The notes: generated by a model not told the origin, from the letters alone. A DNA stretch of 64,000 bases from Candidatus Latescibacterota bacterium (GCA_965203175.1 OZ241867.1:32001-96000); one strand, 5' to 3'. Positions 8,274 to 20,998 are shown, numbered from the stretch's first letter. Translations and numbers: made by a program.

Positions 8274-8406
8274 TGATTTCTCCGCGCCACTAGGGCCGTG
8301 CAATGCCCCTGCAATCGCTTCTAGCCTACTCCTCGGCCGGCTCCGAGACGACGCGGCATTTTTCGTCTACTACCACGATCCAGACACAAGAAGTTGGGAC
8401 CAACCC

Positions 8407-9417
8407 CTATTGTACAGAGGCCAAGTTATTCAAGCAGAGTGGAGTTTCGACGTTCGAACGAATGAAGGCGATATGATCATCCCGTCCTGGCTTGAGATCA
8501 CGCGCATTGTCTAGGGGGACCACAATCGTCCCCCCACAACAGCGATGGTCTGCGTGACCCAATGCAAAGGCGCTACTCAAATGCGACATAGATCCTGATG
8601 GCACAGTATTAGAGCAGTGCTCTGACAGTTGCGTACATACAATTCTGGTGTCGGGCATGATCTCTCGTAAGACGCTAACGATCTCAGGATTCGGAGCACC
8701 GTAACTCCCGCGACCAAAGGAAAAGACCACAGTTATAGGCTCTACGGCTTCGAGTAACCTCTCGGTGAAGGAACGAATGTCCGCTGCACCCGGACGACCT
8801 CCATGATGTGGGTAGACCAAGATGGGTGCCTTCAGGTCCATATTTCGCATCAGCAGATCGTCCAGTCCGATTCCGTCGATGTCTGCAGGCAGAATGGCCA
8901 CATGCTTACCGGACACGCTTATCCGTATCACCGCACTGATAGAGTTGCTTGTGATCCTCCTCCCTGATCCGTTTTTACTACCTACGCCTTTCAGGACCAA
9001 AGCAGGGCTTGGAGCCATTACTTGGATCTCTATATCGCCAAGATCCTCGCTCTTCCCCGGGAACAAGCCAATATCAAGCTCCAGAGTGTCAGCCATATAC
9101 TTGCTAGCCAGTTCGTAGGTCAAGTCACGCCAGCTCTCTGTTTCCTTCGAAGCGTCACTGTTGAGCACAACTCTGTCGATAGTCACTGTACCCGACGCCA
9201 GCAACCCAACAAGGGCACCGATGTGGTCTTCGTCAGCATGAGATAGATAAACTGTCCGAATCCTCCTAATGCATTGCTGGTCCAAGAACTCCAGGAGCGC
9301 ACTGCGACGTCCAACATCGACGACAATCACTTCGGCATCTCCCACGACTACAGCGCAACTCCCCTGACCGACGTCGAGAATGTACAGATGACGACGTAGC
9401 TTGCTCACAGTATTCAC
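8407..9417 (-). CDS. ComEC/Rec2-type metallo-beta-lactamase-fold hydrolase (putative nuclease)
   Basis: LDVGQGSC, LSHADEDHIG (HxDxDH), PADI, PHHG, SFG..YGAPN; no membrane competence domain; Cys-rich C-terminal tail. Confidence 0.85.
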   Translation of the reverse strand: MNTVSKLRRHLYILDVGQGSCAVVVGDAEVIVVDVGRRSALLEFLDQQCIRRIRTVYLSHADEDHIGALVGLLASGTVTIDRVVLNSDASKETESWRDLTYELASKYMADTLELDIGLFPGKSEDLGDIEIQVMAPSPALVLKGVGSKNGSGRRITSNSISAVIRISVSGKHVAILPADIDGIGLDDLLMRNMDLKAPILVYPHHGGRPGAADIRSFTERLLEAVEPITVVFSFGRGSYGAPNPEIVSVLREIMPDTRIVCTQLSEHCSNTVPSGSMSHLSSAFALGHADHRCCGGTIVVPLDNARDLKPGRDDHIAFIRSNVETPLCLNNLASVQ

Positions 9418-10076
9418 TTAGATTCCCAAGAATCGAAGAACAGGGCTTCGTGACTCTCCGCACCAGTGTTAACTTGGGCATGAAACCTTCTACCCGGCTC
9501 GACACGATGACGAATTTTATCCGGAAGGTTGTCCTTATAGAGCCTTATCTTCTGCTGGGAGTCCCACGCCGGCACAATGGCGTAGAAATATCCTCCCTCA
9601 TCATCAACCTCAGCAACTCGGACGAGCGTACGCCATGGTCTTCTCGCGGGATGGAATGTCCCACCAATCTCACGGAGACTCTTCCTCCAAGCCTCCATGA
9701 GTTCTTCTGGATCTGGACTATTGGTCTTGAGTAGGGCTGGTATGTACCGGAGACATTCGCGACGGATTGTCACATCGACATCAGTAAATGTCGTACAAAG
9801 CATTCCAGGTATACCAGCTTTAGAACACTCTGCCACGAGAAGATCCCCATCGCATGCGGCATAGTTGTGCTTCTTAAGATGATAGTCACAGACTACTGCA
9901 TCCGCAGACTGCTTCGCCTTGGTTACGAACGACTCTGCGGTTTCGACGGGTCCCTCCACCATGACTGGCTCCAACCCCAACTCCTCAACGGGATACCCAT
10001 ATCCATTACGCGCTTCTGGATCGTCGTCCACAATCAGAACTCGACTAATCTCTCTGTCGTGAATCGTCACGGGCAC
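9414..10076 (-). CDS. Response-regulator receiver domain protein with non-HTH C-terminal domain
   Basis: VLIVDDD acidic pocket, phosphoacceptor-like Asp in VVCDYHL, CTT, conserved Lys (LLKTN); beta-rich C-terminus. Confidence 0.8.
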   Translation of the reverse strand: MPVTIHDREISRVLIVDDDPEARNGYGYPVEELGLEPVMVEGPVETAESFVTKAKQSADAVVCDYHLKKHNYAACDGDLLVAECSKAGIPGMLCTTFTDVDVTIRRECLRYIPALLKTNSPDPEELMEAWRKSLREIGGTFHPARRPWRTLVRVAEVDDEGGYFYAIVPAWDSQQKIRLYKDNLPDKIRHRVEPGRRFHAQVNTGAESHEALFFDSWESK

Positions 10077-10078
10077 GG

Positions 10079-12145
10079 TTATTTCCCAAGGATAGGAAGC
10101 TCTACAATGATTACCGCCCCGCCGAGCTCTCCCCTCTCTGTGGCGTCCACTTCCCCACCTAAATCCTTGACTGCATCTCGGACGATCGTAAGCCCAAGGC
10201 CGGTCCCGTTCTTGCGAGTGGTGCGTCCTGGAAGCCAGATATCAGTCTTCCGTATACCCTGGATGCCCGGTCCATTATCGTGGACTGTTAGGGTCCAACG
10301 ATCCTGTGAAATCGACGTCGAAATACTGATAACCCTGTCACGTGTGCCTCCACTTTCAAAAGCCGCTAAGCTGTTGTTCAGGAGATTTGTGACGATAGAC
10401 TCGATAGCGGCATCACTCCCCCTCAAGTAGGGATTCCCTGCATAGAAATCCGTCTGCACTGTAACATCCCTGCCTTTAAGAAACGGATCATAGGTATCCA
10501 ATACCTCCTGCAATAGCTCGTGGAGATCGACACGAGAAACCCTCCGCTTTTCATGGTCAACTAGTTTAAGAGTTGCTGTCCCCAATACAGCCAGGCTCCG
10601 CACCGCTCGCCTAATACCATCAACGGGCTTCTGAAGGAATTTGCTATAGTCGTCTTTGAGCAGCTTCCGGGCCCGCCGAGCAATGGCTTCGACTGACTGC
10701 GAAACCACCTTGACTGGGTTCCCACTTGATTCGTGGGCAAACGTGACGGCTGTAATCCCAGCGGTGCTAAGGGTTCTGTATAGTTGTATCTCTTTTTGAA
10801 GAAGATCAACTTCGCGGTCCCGTGCAGATTCGTAAGTGGCGAATGCCTGCCGAATGGCTTTGTGTGACTTGGACGGCGCTTTGGCGATCGCAGCCTCTAC
10901 GCCTCGTCTTGCCGTGTCTACTCGCCTCGGAGCTGACGTCCGCTTCCGGGAGCGCCGCTTCTCCGCCTCCTCCATCCTCCGATTGGCCATCCATTCCATA
11001 GCGTCTTGGGCGAACAGACGGAGCTCGATGAAGGATTCATCCTCGATAAACCCTGATCGGTCTGTCTTCTGGACGAGTCTTCCACGCCTGTCGGTGACAT
11101 CTATACGTCCTATTGAGGTGTTAGTCCCGGGTCTCTCCTCTGGACTTCGTACACGTCGGAGGTTCATCTCCAACCAATCATCGCCGGGATTGCCGTATGG
11201 GCTTACTCGCAGGCCATTATAATAGAAGTGGACTCCACCGAATTCGCGCAGCCATTCCTGTACTTCTCTAACACTCGACCTTCTGGTGGAAAAGGTCTCC
11301 TTATTGAGTATAAAAACCCACAAATCGAAGGTTGCAGGCGGACTTTTGTAGGCCTTCCCGTCTCTATGTACTGAGACATCTTCGTGACTCGCGACGTGAA
11401 GCCCTTGTCCCTTCCAGTCCACAATGTGCGCACTCGCTTGTCCATTTTTGTCGATTTCCGCCCGCAGATGATACTCCGCGTCTTGGAAATACCGACTACG
11501 CACGAGAGCTTCTATATCTTCGTACTCTGGAGCCACTAACTCCGGACGGAATCCTTCTGGATCAGCCCCGAACGGATCGGCGAGCAGAATTAGTTCTCGG
11601 GCCAACCTTTTCACGTCCGTCCGACTAAAGCCAGTTCTTAATTCTTCAATCCGGATTTCGGTTCCGGATTGGGTCCCCTTTTTCCTCCTTGCAGTCTCCA
11701 CGCTCAGTTCTACATCATCGACGAGATCGGCCGTATCGAACTCTTCCCAATCTATGAGCAGATTATGCTCAGTAGTCTTCTCTTTCCGTGGTAAGGTCGT
11801 CATGAGCGCTCGCTTGCCCATTCGCAGGGCGGCGAGTCTCCCAAGACCCTTACTGCCTGCTGGTATCCTTCCAAGACGTGTCTTTCGCTGCTGTGTCTTT
11901 GTTGATTTACCTAGCACCAGCCACCCGTTGGTAATATCATCAGTCGTCATTCCATTGCCATTATCCTTGACGATAACCACTCCCCCTGCTGCGTCGGTGC
12001 TTTGCAGTTCAACCGTGCATTTAGTGGCATCTGCATCGTACGCGTTCTTGACAAGCTCAAGCACCCCCTTGTCCAAGCTGGGATTTAACTCCTCGCCCAA
12101 GCGCTTGAGTATCTCAGTTGAGAATCGAATCCGTGCTGTACTCAT
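10079..12145 (-). CDS. MORC/MutL-like GHKL ATPase fused to histidine kinase
   Basis: N-terminal GHKL motifs ELVKNAYDA, DNGNGM, GSKGLGRLA, GTEIRI; C-terminal H-box FAHE, N-box NLLNNS, G1 DNGPGI, G2 GTGLGL. Confidence 0.9.
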   Translation of the reverse strand: MSTARIRFSTEILKRLGEELNPSLDKGVLELVKNAYDADATKCTVELQSTDAAGGVVIVKDNGNGMTTDDITNGWLVLGKSTKTQQRKTRLGRIPAGSKGLGRLAALRMGKRALMTTLPRKEKTTEHNLLIDWEEFDTADLVDDVELSVETARRKKGTQSGTEIRIEELRTGFSRTDVKRLARELILLADPFGADPEGFRPELVAPEYEDIEALVRSRYFQDAEYHLRAEIDKNGQASAHIVDWKGQGLHVASHEDVSVHRDGKAYKSPPATFDLWVFILNKETFSTRRSSVREVQEWLREFGGVHFYYNGLRVSPYGNPGDDWLEMNLRRVRSPEERPGTNTSIGRIDVTDRRGRLVQKTDRSGFIEDESFIELRLFAQDAMEWMANRRMEEAEKRRSRKRTSAPRRVDTARRGVEAAIAKAPSKSHKAIRQAFATYESARDREVDLLQKEIQLYRTLSTAGITAVTFAHESSGNPVKVVSQSVEAIARRARKLLKDDYSKFLQKPVDGIRRAVRSLAVLGTATLKLVDHEKRRVSRVDLHELLQEVLDTYDPFLKGRDVTVQTDFYAGNPYLRGSDAAIESIVTNLLNNSLAAFESGGTRDRVISISTSISQDRWTLTVHDNGPGIQGIRKTDIWLPGRTTRKNGTGLGLTIVRDAVKDLGGEVDATERGELGGAVIIVELPILGK

Positions 12146-13434
12146 GGCTTATACCACCATGGCATCTCAGCTAAAACTGAGGTCGTTAAGTGCCTACAGC
12201 GAAGTCGTCTGTTAAGCCAATTGTCCGTTTTGCTAGACTGAAGGCGTGTTATCAAAGCTCGACAGGTGTCCTCAGTTCCATCTTTCGGTAGCAACACCAT
12301 CAGATGGTTTTCTACGGCTACGGCACCTTTACCAAGTACCAGTGTGGCTATCGCACGCTTTCCGCCGTCCGGTCTTGATGTTCTCCTGATAGCTACGAAT
12401 GGCGGTTCAAAGAGACGCCCGGTAAATTTTCGCTTCTCCACGATCCGCTTTTGTTCCCCCCACGCGGGTAAAGAACGTGCGTGGATGTATCGGACTTCTG
12501 GACCTACTTCCTCGTGGCGATGTGGCACCACAGGTCCCACATGAACTGCAAATCGTCTGCCAACACCTCCGGGTTTTGTATCACTGATTGAGCCCCCTGC
12601 CTTGCCTCCCTTCTGCTCCCCAGTCTTCAGGAGGTCGAGGAGGTACACATCAACGTCAGCCCATCGGTCAAACAGACCGAGCGAGCGTTCTCCACGAATC
12701 GAACCCAAAGTGCTGATCATGTTGCGCCAGCGTCCGTAACGACTCCCTGATCGAAGTACATCCGGCAGGATTGCGACAATCCTAGTGCCCTCTTGAGAAT
12801 CTTGTATTACCCTCTCTACGAACATTGCCGCAGCACTGATCCGACCCCGCGCCCATTCGCATTCATCAGGAGCACGAGTGTAGCCGAACGGCGGATTCAT
12901 GATTACAACATCGGTACGATACGAAGGTTGCGAATAAGATAGGAAGTCGGCCTCAACTATCTTCGGAAACGTGCGATCAAGCACTATACTCTCGTCACTG
13001 AGACTGACTCTACAACGCTTTGAAGCCAGCAATGCGAGTCTGGCCTTCGCCAAACGGACGAAATCCGAGGAGATGTCGCAGCCGGCTAGGCATCGTCCCC
13101 AATGGTCGAGGGTTCCCCTAAACGTGTTGGCAATTGGTAGTTTCTTCGCCACAGCAAGTAGGAGGTCGCCTGCACCGCACGTTGGGTCGAGATAGACCTG
13201 TTCGTAGTCCGCACCAACGTCAAGTACCTTTGCTAGCCGCGTGGCCATCTTGGTACTGGTAAAATAGGCACCCTGCTCCCTCAACCGTGGATGCTCCTCT
13301 TCTCGGCGGAGCATTTCTCCAGGCTCACCGTCTAGACACATTGTCAGCTTCCGCTGCCACTCGACAGGACTAAGAGTCTTTCGTCCCTGAGCTAGCTGCT
13401 CAAGCTCGTCAACGTATCGGCGAAATTGTTCCAA
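12142..13434 (-). CDS. N6-adenine DNA methyltransferase (gamma class, TaqI/Eco57I-like)
   Basis: GAYFT, motif I DPTCGAGDLL, motif IV NPPF, followed by a probable target-recognition domain; TTG start with an in-frame TAG a few codons upstream. Confidence 0.88.
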   Translation of the reverse strand: MEQFRRYVDELEQLAQGRKTLSPVEWQRKLTMCLDGEPGEMLRREEEHPRLREQGAYFTSTKMATRLAKVLDVGADYEQVYLDPTCGAGDLLLAVAKKLPIANTFRGTLDHWGRCLAGCDISSDFVRLAKARLALLASKRCRVSLSDESIVLDRTFPKIVEADFLSYSQPSYRTDVVIMNPPFGYTRAPDECEWARGRISAAAMFVERVIQDSQEGTRIVAILPDVLRSGSRYGRWRNMISTLGSIRGERSLGLFDRWADVDVYLLDLLKTGEQKGGKAGGSISDTKPGGVGRRFAVHVGPVVPHRHEEVGPEVRYIHARSLPAWGEQKRIVEKRKFTGRLFEPPFVAIRRTSRPDGGKRAIATLVLGKGAVAVENHLMVLLPKDGTEDTCRALITRLQSSKTDNWLNRRLRCRHLTTSVLAEMPWWYKP

Positions 13435-13750
13435 TGTATTAGTCCGGAGCTACCACACTCAGGTTTAGATACTCAAAGGATACGACTAAAAGGGCACCTA
13501 CTTGAAATCGACAAGTTTCGACCTACATGTTCTCGTAATTCTTTGTTCAACAGTATGTTAGAGTTGGAAATGGTTGCAATCGTGAACCCACTGATTTCAT
13601 CTTTGTTTACGAAGGTACCTTCGCACTCCACAAGCCGCAAGGCATTTCGCCTGCCGTTCGATTTCTTGGAACAATTCCCTCCTATACGGCTCGCGCCAAG
13701 ACTCAGTAAGACCGTCGGATTTTGCGTCTCCCGACCAGCACAAAACGCAA

Positions 13751-16885: not shown

Positions 16886-18201
16886 TAGTCCTCTTCGTCT
16901 TCCTCCTCGTCCTTCTCCTCGTCCTTTTGCTCCAGTTTGCTGCGAATGAGGCTTGGGTCTTCGGCGACGCGGTCGCCGCTGGCGAGGCCGGAGAGGATTT
17001 CGAGACGGGTTGAGGTCTCAATGCCGATGGCCAATTCCACCTCTGCGAAAGCACTCAGCGGCATTTGCAGCACGCTGTCTAGGCGCGTGCTGTCCGAGCG
17101 CGTACTGTCCGAGTGCGTGCTGTCTGAAGCGGCGGCTAGCGAATCCGGCGACTGGGCGATATACGCGACAAAGCGACCGCGCGTACCCGCGCCGCGCTCG
17201 TCTTCTTCGTCCTCGTCGTCAAAGACCTCCAGCGCCCGCTCGACCGGCAGGTACACCGCGCTGTCGCGGCGCGCAAAGAGAATGTCGATATCGCAGGACA
17301 TGCCCTGGCGCAGACGCGGCGCGTTGTCGGTAATCTCGATCTCCGTGTCAAAGGTGACGATGGTGCTGCCCTGCTTCTGCTGGCCCACGGGCGCAATCCA
17401 GCGCACCCGGCCGCGATACGTGGTGTCGGGATACGCATCCACGATAATGTCCACGTCTTGGTCGATCTCCACCCGGCCAATGTCGATTTCCGCGATGTCG
17501 CCGCGCACGATCATCTGGCTGGGATCGCCGATCTCAAAGAGCATCGTCCCGCCGGAATACGACGAGAGCCCAGAGGACACCACCTCGCCGATTTCCACGT
17601 TGCGGCGGATGACAATGCCGTCAATCGGGGCGAGGACGCGCATCTCGTCGAGCGAGACTTGATCTTCTGAGAGTTGGGTGCGCTGTAGGTTGGCCTTGGC
17701 TTCGAGCATGTCGAGTTCGAGCTGGGCCAAGCGCAGAACAGTGCGCGCGCGCGTCAGGCGCACCTCGGCTTCCTCAAACTGCTTGGCCGGTATCATCTTG
17801 CTGTCGAAGAGGGCCTTCTGACGCTCGAAGTTCCGCTCCTGTTCCGCCAAATCGATCTTGCCCTGCTCCACGCTCGAGCGCTTCTGATACAATTGCAGCG
17901 ATTGATTGGGATCTGGCTCGATGACGGCCATCAGCTCACCGGTCTCCACCCACGCGCCGGCCTCAATGGGCAAGTCGCGGATTTCGCCGGCAATCGTCGA
18001 TTTGACCTCCACGGTCCGCACCAACTCGATGCGGCCTGTTTCGGCCAGCTTATCGACGACCGCGCCTCGCTCGACGAGCGCCGTGGGATATGTTTCTTCG
18101 GCCTTTTCCCGCCGCAAGTTGAAATAGACCGCGGCTCCGACCGAGCCGACCAAGAGCAAGAAGACGAGGAACTTTAGAAGACGGCGCTTCTTGGTTGCCA
18201 C
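16885..18201 (-). CDS. Efflux RND/MacA-type periplasmic adaptor subunit
   Basis: N-terminal TM, lipoyl halves (VKSTIAGEI, APIDGIV), coiled coil, beta-barrel, acidic tail; GTG 18201 after GAG. Confidence 0.92.
   Translation of the reverse strand: MATKKRRLLKFLVFLLLVGSVGAAVYFNLRREKAEETYPTALVERGAVVDKLAETGRIELVRTVEVKSTIAGEIRDLPIEAGAWVETGELMAVIEPDPNQSLQLYQKRSSVEQGKIDLAEQERNFERQKALFDSKMIPAKQFEEAEVRLTRARTVLRLAQLELDMLEAKANLQRTQLSEDQVSLDEMRVLAPIDGIVIRRNVEIGEVVSSGLSSYSGGTMLFEIGDPSQMIVRGDIAEIDIGRVEIDQDVDIIVDAYPDTTYRGRVRWIAPVGQQKQGSTIVTFDTEIEITDNAPRLRQGMSCDIDILFARRDSAVYLPVERALEVFDDEDEEDERGAGTRGRFVAYIAQSPDSLAAASDSTHSDSTRSDSTRLDSVLQMPLSAFAEVELAIGIETSTRLEILSGLASGDRVAEDPSLIRSKLEQKDEEKDEEEDEED
17071..17146 (-). 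repeat. Imperfect 15-bp coding tandem repeat (DSL...SDSTH-SDSTR-SDSTR-LDSV)
   Basis: Plus strand repeats cgtgctgtccgagcg / cgtactgtccgagtg / cgtgctgtctgaagc. Confidence 0.8.
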
Positions 18202-18202
18202 C

Positions 18203-18886
18203 TCAACCTCCGGGGTTGAGGGTGCTGAAGAACGCACCGATGGCGAGGAAGATCAGCGTGATAGCCGCAACGCCCGCATAGGCACGGCTGCGCTCTATCT
18301 GACCGAGGATAGACAACCCGAGGCCGGCGATGACGACCATCCAGACGACAAAGGGATCGATGGAACTCAATAAAGCTCCCCCGAAACTTTTTTGGGCTTC
18401 CTCGGAAAGGAACATCCCCAGCCCTATTTGCACATTCATCGTCTCATTGGCTAAGACCAGCGGAGTCTTGACAACATGCTGGAGAATGGCAATCAGCGAG
18501 GTGTACGCGACGATGGCCAAGCACTGGCTATAGCCGAGCAGGCCGCCGAGTAATTTGCCTACTAAGAGGTATATCGCAGCACCAACAAAGAGCATGACAA
18601 ACGTCATAACCGGTGCGGCAATCAGCGTACTGATCAGGATGGCGTCTTTAGCGCCTTCCATTTCACCGCTTTGTTCTTGCTGCGGCATCTGTTCCATCGC
18701 CTCAGCCACGTAGATCGGCGAGGTTACATACGTGGAGAAGAAGACTACCATTGCCACTACAATGGTCGGCACCAGCCAGTCGGCGACACTGCGCTGCTTG
18801 CTTACGGCCTCAAAGGTCTCGGATGGAGCGTAGAAGACGCGCAACATGCGGCCTGCAACGCTCATTTCTGCTTGGGGAGCTTCCAT
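18203..18886 (-). CDS. Yip1 family membrane protein
   Basis: 'VFYAPSETF' N-terminal motif, about five TM helices, context next to a MacAB exporter. Confidence 0.85.
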   Translation of the reverse strand: MEAPQAEMSVAGRMLRVFYAPSETFEAVSKQRSVADWLVPTIVVAMVVFFSTYVTSPIYVAEAMEQMPQQEQSGEMEGAKDAILISTLIAAPVMTFVMLFVGAAIYLLVGKLLGGLLGYSQCLAIVAYTSLIAILQHVVKTPLVLANETMNVQIGLGMFLSEEAQKSFGGALLSSIDPFVVWMVVIAGLGLSILGQIERSRAYAGVAAITLIFLAIGAFFSTLNPGG

Positions 18887-19010
18887 GGCGGTTCCTTTGT
18901 GGGGGTGAAGGTTTTTCGCCGCTAGCGGCGAAGGCTCCGTTCATAGAAGCAAACTAACGATTGCCCATCACAGTTCCAAGCCGAGTCTCAGAGGACCGTC
19001 AACGAATCCG

Positions 19011-20000
19011 CTACAGCCACTGCAATAAAAACCGAGCCTGTGTCTCCTCTAGACTTAGCAGACCCTGGACGTACTCGCGGATTCGCTTCAGCATGGCTGC
19101 CGGGTCGTTGTACGCTCCCTTGAAGAACAAGTCGCAGGTCACTTCCCAACGCCGGCCTATATCCCCAAAGGCATCGGCCGCAGCCGACAGGGCACCCAAG
19201 CCGGTTGCCGCCGCCAGCCGCCGCAAATTGTCGTCCAGCCGCTGGCGCTGCGGGCCGAGTAGGGCCAGCTGACAGAACACCTCCCGCATCCAAACGCTCA
19301 TACTCTCTTCGTCCTGTTCAATCTGACGCTCCATCTCCTCGACAAAGCGCTGCGCGGCCGGCAAGCCCGTCTCTACTCGGCCGACCTTGTTGCCCGCGAG
19401 CATCTCCCGCACATCCTCCAAGAGGACCTGCTCCATTTTCTCAACTGGATAGGGGTCGAGACCCTCTGGCACTGCGTAGTCGTACACCACCAGTTCGGGC
19501 AACATCTCGGGCAGACGAGAAAGCGGTACCTGCCCCACAAAGCCCTGCGGATTAACCAAAATCGTCAACTTATCCGTCGCTTGATCGTATCCATAGATGA
19601 GCATGGCCTCGCTGGCACCGGGTGTGCGATTGTATTGAAAGGCCGCATCGCTCACATCGCGGGCATCCACCCAAGCGAGCAGCACTCGGTCTGCGGCAAT
19701 CGACTCCTCAATCGCCTGCCACAAATCGGCAAAATTGTCGCGGCGCACCTCGCGGCGCTCAATTCCATAGAGATAGTACAAGTTGCGGTGGATCAACTCA
19801 TTGGCCGGTAGGCCAACTGGCATTCTCTCCTCGGCGTCAAAAAAGAACGACCAGCCCATCAAAGCCCCGTAGTACGCTCGCTCGTCGGCCAGTTGGGGAC
19901 TGTAGTATTGAAGCGCGGCCATAATAGTCTCCCCAGAGGCAAATAACGTGGGATGCCCTTCGACTCGGTATAGATCGACAGGGCGGCGTACCTTTTTCAC
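19011..20000 (-). CDS. BtrH-like protein (BtrH_N/DUF4872 architecture), probably catalytically inactive
   Basis: Papain/C39-like pattern 'LAWVD...MLIYGYD' and helical C-terminus 'TGLPAAQRF...R...AADAF..IGRRW'; GAGGA RBS before GTG. Confidence 0.6.
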   Translation of the reverse strand: MKKVRRPVDLYRVEGHPTLFASGETIMAALQYYSPQLADERAYYGALMGWSFFFDAEERMPVGLPANELIHRNLYYLYGIERREVRRDNFADLWQAIEESIAADRVLLAWVDARDVSDAAFQYNRTPGASEAMLIYGYDQATDKLTILVNPQGFVGQVPLSRLPEMLPELVVYDYAVPEGLDPYPVEKMEQVLLEDVREMLAGNKVGRVETGLPAAQRFVEEMERQIEQDEESMSVWMREVFCQLALLGPQRQRLDDNLRRLAAATGLGALSAAADAFGDIGRRWEVTCDLFFKGAYNDPAAMLKRIREYVQGLLSLEETQARFLLQWL

Positions 20001-20107
20001 GGTATCCTCAATTGGTTAGAAGGTGAGTTGCCGAAGTCAGAGCAAGGCGCACGTACAGAGTGGTCTAAAAAGGACTTCTGCTCTAAACAGCGGATGGGAT
20101 GATAATG

Positions 20108-20398
20108 AGCAAGTCGCCTTGGGCCGAGGCGGGCTTGCACCGCGCCTCCAAGCGTGAACATGCCCCATCTCCTTCGGAGAAGGGGAACAGGCGGCCCCCT
20201 CGGGGGCCGGGCCATGTTCAACATTCCCTGCAGAGTGCAGCGATGTTTCTACCTATTCGCCAAGGCAGAAGGGAGCGACCCTTCGCCGGGTATCGGCTAT
20301 TGTATTCAGCAGATGACCCGACTAAGCGGGATCTGCAAGGAATGCTGAACACTCTGAAGATAGGGGGAGATAGCCGCTGGCGACAAGGCAAACTTGCT
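20108..20398 (-). ncRNA. Candidate structured RNA element / long regulatory leader (unassigned family)
   Basis: 20-bp stem 20215-20234 / 20332-20351 whose two mismatches are G-U only on the minus strand; several internal hairpins; alternative pairing 20155-20162 / 20213-20220; imperfect terminal inverted repeats. Confidence 0.5.
20357..20386 (-). promoter_or_regulatory. Putative sigma70 promoter TTGTCG-N18-TATCTT
   Basis: Lies just downstream of a terminator; the predicted start site falls at the first base of the long stem. Confidence 0.4.
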
Positions 20399-20411
20399 TT
20401 GCGATGGGCAC

Positions 20412-20441
20412 AAAAAAAACCAGCCCCGCAAAGGGGCTGGT
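20412..20441 (-). terminator. Rho-independent terminator of the ABC-ABC-DUF1854 operon
   Basis: Minus strand ACCAGCCCC-tttgc-GGGGCTGGT followed by a T run. Confidence 0.88.
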
Positions 20442-20467
20442 CAGCATACTACAACGGCGAGCGCTAG

Positions 20468-20998
20468 TCAGACGACCTGCTCGACTGCTGCTAAACTCTT
20501 CTTGTCCAGTTCGTCGAGGCGCGGAATTTCAAAGCGGTTGCCATCGACATCGGTGATCAGCAGCCGGTGGTCGCCGAGCCATTGGGCGTTTTCCGAGACG
20601 TTCTGGACGACGAACTCGCGCGAACCGCGGTCGGTCTGCACATCCCAATAAGAGGTGCCGTATTCGTTGCGCACCGCATTGACCCGCTGAATCGCCGCCG
20701 TCAAATAGCGGCGGTCCAGCTCCTCCTCGATCAAGGCGCGCGCCTCTAAGTCGAGCTGTTTGAGATCGTCGATCATGCAGATCTCCTCGTCTTTGGCGTC
20801 GAGGAGACAGATATAGCGGGTCGGGTGGGACAGTGGCGCGGCGCGGACGACCTTCACCTTCAGGTACGAGCGGTCGCCGTCGATGGTCAAGCGCAATATC
20901 CAAGCCGGCTCGCGGAAGAGGCGCAGCTTGTCGATTTCGACGTGCTCGGGGTGAGTCACGGAAATCGGGGTAATCGCTAGTTTTTTGTCATCTGTCAT
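20468..20998 (-). CDS. DUF1854 domain-containing protein
   Basis: VRAAPLSHP...EEELDRRYL...YWDVQTDRG...LITDVDGNRFEI signature. Confidence 0.88.
   Translation of the reverse strand: MTDDKKLAITPISVTHPEHVEIDKLRLFREPAWILRLTIDGDRSYLKVKVVRAAPLSHPTRYICLLDAKDEEICMIDDLKQLDLEARALIEEELDRRYLTAAIQRVNAVRNEYGTSYWDVQTDRGSREFVVQNVSENAQWLGDHRLLITDVDGNRFEIPRLDELDKKSLAAVEQVV

Follow-up and report, generated by a model that had tools for sequence, protein, structure and literature searches.

A 64,000-nucleotide stretch of a Candidatus Latescibacterota genome (GCA_965203175.1 OZ241867.1:32001-96000, hereafter the window) carries at positions 8407–13434, on the minus strand, a cassette of four co-oriented genes that very probably constitutes a defence cassette. 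ORF (open reading frame) calling gave, in this order, a gamma-class N6-adenine DNA methyltransferase (12142–13434, 430 amino acids (aa)), a soluble histidine kinase with a MORC-like GHKL ATPase head (10079–12145, 688 aa), a receiver protein ending in a cold-shock/OB-like β-barrel (9414–10076, 220 aa) and a putative nuclease of the ComEC/Rec2-type metallo-β-lactamase (MBL) fold (8407–9417, 336 aa). As read from the sequence, the methylase and kinase genes overlap by ATGA, the kinase and receiver genes are separated by a 2-nucleotide spacer (TAA-cc-GTG) and the receiver and MBL genes overlap by GTGA; the four genes are therefore translationally coupled or abutting. An initial annotation of the window, made by a model from the sequence alone, had placed these four genes and their junctions correctly, and its four domain assignments are supported by the Pfam, NCBIfam and PDB profile comparisons and the receiver model described below.

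The methylase matches Pfam N6_Mtase (E 2.6e-6), and its translation contains the motifs DPTCGAGD and NPPF. Its C-terminal ~190 aa are presumed to form the target-recognition region. PADLOC models matched by this protein include MTase_II (E 2.2e-13) and mad2 (E 1.4e-11). Membership of the methylation-associated defence system MADS was considered and rejected, the score against NCBIfam MAD2 being 25.1 bits with a cut-off of 720; no other MADS model was present among the PADLOC or NCBIfam matches listed for the remaining three proteins (for the kinase, the best 25 of 89 families).

The kinase contains two ATPase domains, HATPase_c_3 at residues 25–147 (Pfam E 1.6e-22) and HATPase_c at residues 580–685 (E 2.3e-22), between which lie an uncharacterised middle region (residues ~150–440) and a DHp domain with the sequence FAHE (H471). 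A profile built from 17 homologues matched ZraS-type kinases in the PDB over residues 447–684 (E 3.6e-15), and the same profile, over residues 28–121, matched MORC3 (E 3.7e-5), MORC2 (E 6.9e-5) and MutL (E 2.7e-3). GHKL motifs I–III of the MORC-like head are intact, and the GHKL motifs of both ATPase domains as well as the FAHE histidine are invariant in the 17 sequences. The invariant residues are E30, N34, D61, G63, G65 and G97–G102 in the head and H471, E472, N587, N591, D623, G625, G627 and G647–L652 in the kinase core. More than 3000 relatives were found in the database, the best 120 of them 63–100% identical to the query and 603–713 aa long.

The product of the fourth gene matches Pfam Lactamase_B (E 6.8e-10) and the ComEC/Rec2 model TIGR00361 (E 1.1e-9). 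The best PDB matches of its family profile are ComEC/Rec2 proteins (E 5.3e-19), 30bt_A spanning profile positions 4–248. All 30 aligned sequences retain an HxDxDH motif (H60-D62-D64-H65) and residues D179, H204 and H205 without change; the alignment took in 29 of 31 ORFs (L003 and L021 omitted). Judged by these metal motifs and by its closest similarity, which is to the β-lactamase-like domain of ComEC, the protein is a ComEC-type MBL. A conserved Cys/His cluster (C261, C268, H279, C294, H315 and C328; window positions 8434–8637) lies C-terminal to the core and outside the range of the ComEC match, and may be a zinc-binding module. In agreement with the initial annotation, PD-(D/E)xK or HNH families were not found among the four proteins (Pfam, E≤0.1).

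The receiver matches Pfam Response_reg (PF00072) weakly, at E 0.007 and under the Pfam cut-off, and does not match Response_reg_2 (PF19192) at E≤0.1. Its AlphaFold model has a pLDDT (predicted local distance difference test) of 94.5 and returned receivers as its only Foldseek matches (E 4e-5 to 4e-4), so that the model confirms a receiver fold for residues 1–137. The acidic pocket comprises D17 and D18, D64 is the phospho-acceptor by motif, and T95 is in place. Across 30 family members (29 of 31 clustered ORFs were aligned; L003 and L036 omitted) no substitution is seen at D18 or D64 and hardly any at D17 and T95, whereas the Lys position, K117 in this protein, varies. The Lys that the initial annotation listed with the intact pocket is thus not a family feature. 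The same annotation had described a receiver devoid of a helix-turn-helix (HTH) output. Indeed, neither Pfam nor the structural model revealed an HTH or winged HTH (wHTH), and the C-terminal part forms instead a five-stranded barrel (residues ~148–218) whose third and fourth strands are joined by a short helix in the model. Folded alone, the barrel has a pLDDT of 90.7. VIA-align matched it to 8put_E (Z 6.6; root-mean-square deviation 6.1 over 71 residues), 6s8z_A (Z 6.5; 2.4 over 64 residues) and cold-shock domains (Z 5.5–6.2), the best matches as a whole being EF-P/eIF5A OB domains and cold-shock domains at Z 5–6.6; the best Foldseek match is the YBX1 cold-shock domain (E 3.4e-3). Because no Foldseek match reached E≤0.001 and VIA-align Z was at most 6.6, in a range (below 8) where a match may reflect a common arrangement, the modelled barrel is said to resemble cold-shock/OB folds by topology only and is assigned to no family. 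The receiver-barrel family comprises 420 clusters at 50% identity for E≤1e-30 and 759 for 1e-10, and its best 150 members are all 213–257 aa long and matched end to end. A 525-aa ORF of one locus (L021) that looked like a receiver–MBL fusion was discarded as an ORF-calling artefact, the receiver match lying in another frame.

To assess conservation of the arrangement, species-representative genomes were scanned and partner genes were checked by tblastn. Of 80 loci recovered, 37 encode a kinase at least 39% identical to that of the window. Receiver and MBL homologues follow the kinase in the same order in all 33 loci that could be assessed downstream; in the other four (L025, L027, L033 and L035) the sequence ends early. 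Because the trio recurs in order in 33 of 33 loci, the gene arrangement is far beyond chance. It is intact in 31 of these loci and fragmentary in two, a Nostoc metagenome-assembled genome (MAG) (L036, 7001–9800) and an Acidobacteriaceae MAG (L037, 5723–10605), where tblastn detected kinase and MBL fragments, apparently of decayed copies. The conserved synteny on which the initial annotation had staked its case is therefore found for kinase, receiver and MBL throughout, and for all four genes in the part of the set that has a methylase homologue.

Upstream, 36 loci could be assessed, and 24 of them have a homologue of the window methylase (33–45% identity) next to the kinase gene, in two cases on the opposite strand. 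One further locus (L030) carries an unrelated Eco57I-type N6 methylase in its place. The remaining 11 loci, ten from cyanobacteria and one from an Enterobacterales MAG, have the kinase–receiver–MBL trio and no adjacent DNA methylase, a count that refers to adjacent genes and leaves room for an orphan methylase elsewhere in those genomes. Their neighbours are housekeeping-type genes (EF-G, a solute-binding protein, glycosyltransferases and similar). On the kinase tree the methylase-less state arose at least twice. The cyanobacterial loci without a methylase group together in a single sub-clade, and L023 and L030 are placed outside it.

The kinase tree has 76 rows, five loci that lack a kinase ORF of at least 600 aa being omitted. 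The MBL-type loci form a single clade of 34 rows (Shimodaira–Hasegawa-like approximate likelihood ratio test support 100) that spans about ten phyla. Partner type follows kinase clade, with 9 changes on the tree, compared to a minimum of 7 and a mean of 39.7 after shuffling. The other 43 loci encode kinases of the same architecture, aligned over the full length at 24–29% identity, with different partners. One partner set is a receiver, an HNH protein and an Eco57I-type N6 methylase (11 loci); another is a C5 methylase with a partner of ~450 aa that has no annotation, to which a small gene is added in some loci. The window kinase sits in the same tree as these C5-methylase-linked kinases. In two HNH-type loci (L039 and L047) the upstream gene is instead a homologue of the window methylase (39–40% identity), combined with a different receiver and an HNH nuclease. 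From this modular swap and from the way partner type tracks kinase clade, it follows that receiver and nuclease are swapped together, a pattern consistent with an output domain of the receiver that is matched to the nuclease. Two further arrangements were observed in the superfamily. In L046 (4285–10942), L051 and L079 the kinase gene lies between a gene for a HerA-type ATPase and genes for a Response_reg_2-like partner and an HhH-GPD DNA glycosylase; a C5 methylase gene lies upstream. An archaeal form (L038 and L041, Nitrosopumilaceae) consists of the kinase, a canonical receiver (Response_reg E 3.5e-10), a 199-aa protein of no family and a C5 methylase.

The complex of receiver and MBL was predicted from one 30-row alignment per protein. 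The interface score ipSAE was 0.87, compared to 0.04 for the best of three controls; 58 of 80 solved complexes attained this mark, as did 2 of 110 mismatched pairs, counts that apply only roughly here, the alignments being self-made. The runs agree in at least 98% of contacts, and partner pLDDT is at least 87. Predicted contacts connect the receiver barrel (residues 142–206) with MBL residues 38–43, 63–77, 94–102 and 286–289, directly beside HxDxDH. Within the barrel, conservation is higher at the predicted interface residues than at the other positions (0.57 vs 0.45, permutation p ~0.02). This model lends support to the proposal of the initial annotation that the MBL nuclease is the target of the relay, and the predicted docking of the barrel beside HxDxDH favours a direct, post-translational control in which the receiver gates the nuclease according to its phosphorylation.

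The four genes lie within a 5.4-kb foreign island (8304–13745) that extends from a gene for a dimethylformamide (DMF)-amidase-like protein to an ABC ATPase gene and was delimited by blastn against same-genus genomes and by a dip in GC content. The island has 52% GC and its flanks 61–63%; in 1-kb windows GC is 0.51–0.54 over positions 8501–13500 and 0.60–0.64 in both flanks, and the lower GC suspected in the initial annotation is thereby established. Also as that annotation had it, the cassette is inserted between a MacB exporter and a catabolic cluster: the upper flank encodes the ABC ATPase, two MacB-type permeases and an HlyD protein, and the lower flank the DMF-amidase-like protein, an HpcH aldolase and a 2-hydroxyacid dehydrogenase. 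Just past the exporter genes, at 18001–20500, GC falls once more, though less strongly (0.56–0.58). The intergenic region upstream of the methylase gene (13435–13750, ~315 bp) is AT-richer and is presumed to contain the promoter. Its small ORFs have no Pfam family at E≤0.05, and no ORF in 13426–13824 matches any Pfam family, hence there is no XRE (C-protein) gene upstream of the cassette. A scan of the upstream region for σ70 consensus sites and terminators gave no σ70-like site, a result that is uninformative for this organism.

In three of five same-genus genomes the genes that flank the island are 884–949 bp apart (blastn), compared to 5.4 kb in the window; in the remaining two the 1.5-kb flank reached no match. 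The cassette is missing from all 18 same-genus genomes compared, in which no kinase exceeds 28% identity. The cassette is horizontally acquired. A same-genus genome that lacks it has a distant MORC-like kinase elsewhere in the chromosome (L082, G001:C1:976748-978832; 28% identity, a 724-aa open frame). In another relative (G011; L085, 603–1368) the equivalent gap is occupied by a 107-aa RHH/CopG-like and a 154-aa PIN/VapC-like ORF, as judged from their translations, and on account of this toxin–antitoxin-like pair the spot is regarded as a variable site for small mobile modules. The cassette is also mobile: the same four genes are present on the conjugative megaplasmid of Burkholderia sp. IDO3, beside ParDE, and related kinases are found on Hymenobacter and Pseudanabaena plasmids. 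In the wider kinase superfamily 65 plasmid records match, 50 of them typed as conjugative, and 41 Campylobacter plasmid records encode a distant superfamily kinase with 23–24% identity over 95–96% of the query among the matches listed.

The closest architecture with a tested function is that of Ambrosia from Pseudomonas aeruginosa (AbrR-AbrA-AbrB-AbrC-AbrD), described as an XRE protein, an N6 methylase, a kinase/HATPase, a REC-wHTH protein and an HNH protein (bioRxiv 10.1101/2025.09.30.679545). Ambrosia is reported to block phages in PAO1, every gene and the receiver Asp being needed, and phage grown on the methylase AbrA alone is reported to stay sensitive (10.1101/2025.09.30.679545). The cassette of the window is a real and well-conserved feature. 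A defence role, as the initial annotation had suggested, is likely by analogy, and we think it reasonably probable that the cassette is a mobile, Ambrosia-like anti-phage or anti-plasmid system whose conserved core is formed by kinase, receiver and nuclease.

Within such a system the soluble kinase would sense an infection-linked cue, most likely a state of DNA, by means of its MORC-like head. It would then autophosphorylate on H471 and pass the phosphate to D64 of the receiver, as the intact and invariant motifs suggest. The receiver would not act as a transcription factor: its barrel is predicted to sit on the MBL nuclease beside the HxDxDH metal site, and phosphorylation would therefore activate or silence the nuclease directly. 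The barrel might do so by offering DNA to the nuclease or keeping it away, in the manner of the ComEC OB fold towards the β-lactamase-like nuclease domain of ComEC. The nuclease would finally degrade DNA, as can be expected from ComEC biochemistry. Signal, phosphotransfer, substrate and sign of control are all things that we infer. A more far-reaching version, put forward tentatively and with the odds somewhat against it, is a non-transcriptional His-to-Asp relay in which the response regulator serves as an OB-like cofactor, switched by phosphorylation, that physically gates a soluble ComEC-type DNase, kinase, receiver-barrel and nuclease are self-sufficient without a cognate methylase, as in the cyanobacterial clade, and the MORC-like head is a direct sensor of foreign DNA.

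The initial annotation had preferred classical restriction-modification (R-M) logic, according to which the methylase marks self, the MORC clamp recognizes DNA that lacks the methyl mark and the relay allows the MBL to cleave only unmodified DNA. The methylase homologue adjacent to the kinase in two-thirds of the assessable loci, and translationally coupled to it here, agrees with this logic, and MORC-like GHKL heads do occur in type II restriction enzymes, residues 9–185 of the window kinase matching NCBIfam BbrUII/HgiDII (E 8.6e-21) and PADLOC REase_II (E 1.4e-10). However, 11 of the 36 loci have no adjacent methylase and depart from the obligatory pairing of methylase and nuclease that defines a classical type II system; the idea that methylation marks self is therefore weakened. 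The unrelated methylase of L030, the repeated origin of the methylase-less state and the continued sensitivity of phage grown on the Ambrosia methylase alone point the same way. The methylase-less clade and the Ambrosia data together argue against a simple marking of self, with which methylase-bearing copies such as the present one remain compatible; as an account of the cassette we consider R-M logic unlikely, and the sensing of unmethylated DNA by the MORC head is purely conjectural. The methylase would rather be an accessory layer, dispensable for the core, with a self-marking or substrate-marking role as proposed for Ambrosia. In a non-immune reading the cassette would be a selfish, toxin–antitoxin-like addiction module, with the receiver as antidote of a toxic nuclease, or a mobile DNA-processing or repair device. 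The PIN/RHH-type pair at the equivalent site of a relative, the location beside ParDE on the Burkholderia plasmid, the two decayed copies and the predicted binding of receiver to nuclease could all be explained in this way. Yet known addiction modules are far simpler than an ATP-driven phosphorelay of four genes, the closest architecture to have been tested acts against phages and ComEC-like MBLs are recurrent defence effectors, which makes a non-immune function very unlikely.

As for control of the nuclease, the phosphorylated receiver might instead bind DNA and, upon infection, induce the methylase and nuclease genes, the nuclease itself being unregulated. This is the kind of control that the authors of Ambrosia favour on the basis of infection-induced reporter expression (10.1101/2025.09.30.679545), and there AbrC carries a wHTH; cold-shock/OB-like barrels, too, can bind nucleic acid, as the fold matches indicate. 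In the cassette, however, no HTH or wHTH is detected by Pfam or in the model, there is no XRE gene upstream, the complex prediction puts the barrel on the MBL, and an unregulated cytoplasmic DNase would need another safeguard. Transcriptional control by the receiver is, in our estimate, highly improbable. Several observations, apart from the view of the Ambrosia authors, do weigh against an Ambrosia-like cassette with direct gating of the nuclease. The score of the complex expresses model confidence and is not a measurement, and on the MBL the predicted interface shows no excess of conservation over the remainder of the protein (0.45 vs 0.52, p ~0.89). The fold matches of the barrel are weak. 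A search among longer proteins, in itself weak evidence, gave no receiver–MBL fusion or other fused form of the receiver, and the best 150 family matches are all stand-alone. The likeness to Ambrosia is one of architecture, as judged from the published description of AbrA–D. When 105 of 115 ORFs in the flanks of MBL-type loci were compared with PADLOC (ten ORFs of L027, L036 and L037 were omitted), 119 families were matched, each by at most three ORFs, so that any enrichment in defence genes stands without a baseline; the commonest matches were mad2-like methylases (3 ORFs) and then type IIG enzymes (2 ORFs).

Two-component signalling is textbook gene regulation, and its use as a trigger of immune nucleases is only now emerging. 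Ambrosia, the one tested relative, has no settled mechanism, and the variant described here offers a simpler and directly testable circuit of one kinase, one receiver with a barrel predicted to dock on the nuclease and one ComEC-like DNase. The receiver family is widespread (hundreds of clusters, many phyla), and a natural methylase-less form exists. Study of the circuit could show how phosphorylation switches a nuclease without transcription and could reveal what a prokaryotic MORC-like ATPase senses, a matter that bears on eukaryotic MORC biology.

Among known systems, the generic and named models of defence libraries gave little. PADLOC v2 returned generic methylase and restriction-enzyme matches and weak matches to MBL effectors, with no named system, as the initial annotation had anticipated, and NCBIfam gave no antiphage model at its cut-off; the cassette is therefore not a member of the systems in those libraries. 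A literature search for the exact combination yielded no paper on the MBL variant, in a search that lay outside subscription journals and supplements, which may list such loci. The initial annotation had nevertheless gone too far in recognizing no named counterpart, given the sister architecture of Ambrosia and the MORC-like kinase/receiver pairs described in PMC8011034. With Ambrosia the cassette shares an N6-adenine methylase, a soluble kinase with an HSP90-like HATPase, a receiver and a nuclease in one cluster, and Ambrosia, too, is not a conventional type II R-M system. The window methylase corresponds to AbrA in being an N6-adenine methylase by its N6_Mtase match and NPPF motif, and the kinase fits the architecture of AbrB, compared by description alone. 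Our set also includes HNH-type loci (L039 and L047 as well as nine more) that resemble Ambrosia in gene order and may or may not be Ambrosia proper. The two systems differ in the nuclease (a ComEC-type MBL as opposed to the type IV HNH protein AbrD), in the HipB-like XRE regulator AbrR, which the cassette lacks, and in the end of the receiver (a cold-shock/OB-like barrel as opposed to the wHTH of AbrC). As the barrel is predicted to bind the nuclease, control in the cassette is probably post-translational.

Pairs of HEF_HK (PF19191) kinases and Response_reg_2 (PF19192) proteins near R-M genes and paraMORCs were described in silico by Bellieny-Rabelo et al. 2021 (PMC8011034). The kinases in that work have the architecture HATPase_c_3+HEF_HK+HATPase_c and Response_reg_2 partners, in a set with mostly C5 methylases, HNH_2 and Vsr; the main-text Results mention no MBL partner (PMC8011034). 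The initial annotation had called it established that MORC-like ATPases fused to histidine kinases are paired with receivers. Iyer et al. 2008 (PMC2292703), considered as a source for this, was rejected, the word 'receiver' not occurring in it, and the statement rests on the 2021 paper (PMC8011034). Our kinase shares with the pairs of that paper the soluble HATPase_c_3, DHp and HATPase_c arrangement beside R-M genes, an adjacent receiver-like gene and the linkage to a DNA methylase. It differs in that neither PF19191 nor PF19192 matches the window proteins at E≤0.1; a close homologue of the kinase (L001) has no HEF_HK match at E≤0.01, and of nine related-locus kinases scanned only the L046 branch touches HEF_HK (23.8 bits).

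The C-terminal domain of ComEC is a metal-dependent nuclease (PMC8579336), and the OB fold of ComEC is reported to enhance its β-lactamase-like nuclease (PMC12455585). The cassette MBL is closest to this nuclease domain, and both are paired with a small OB-like barrel, which in the cassette is likened to the ComEC OB fold by topology. In contrast to ComEC, the MBL is soluble and has no competence channel, its barrel belongs to a separate polypeptide fused to a receiver, and its context is a methylase–kinase operon and not DNA uptake. ComEC-like MBL nucleases are also described as latent, gated effectors (protease-activated proenzymes) in Avs, Lamassu and Hachiman (PMC12799240). The cassette would share with these a ComEC-like MBL as a latent effector in need of a partner, and its MBL matches the PADLOC MBL effectors RTasMBL (E 1.9e-7) and LmuA (E 4.5e-5) weakly; their gate is a trypsin-like protease, whereas that proposed here is a phospho-receiver. 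Detocs reportedly combines a sensor kinase of the TPR type with two receivers, one acting as a buffer and the other fused to a PNP-type effector, and is said to have no MORC head, methylase or MBL; common to it and the cassette would be a histidine kinase–receiver phosphorelay in phage defence with a non-transcriptional effector. What was known before, then, are MORC-kinase/receiver pairs beside R-M genes, found in silico in 2021, and a sister architecture, Ambrosia, tested as anti-phage. What is new in the cassette, besides its lack of an XRE gene, is the MBL effector and the receiver with an OB-like barrel.

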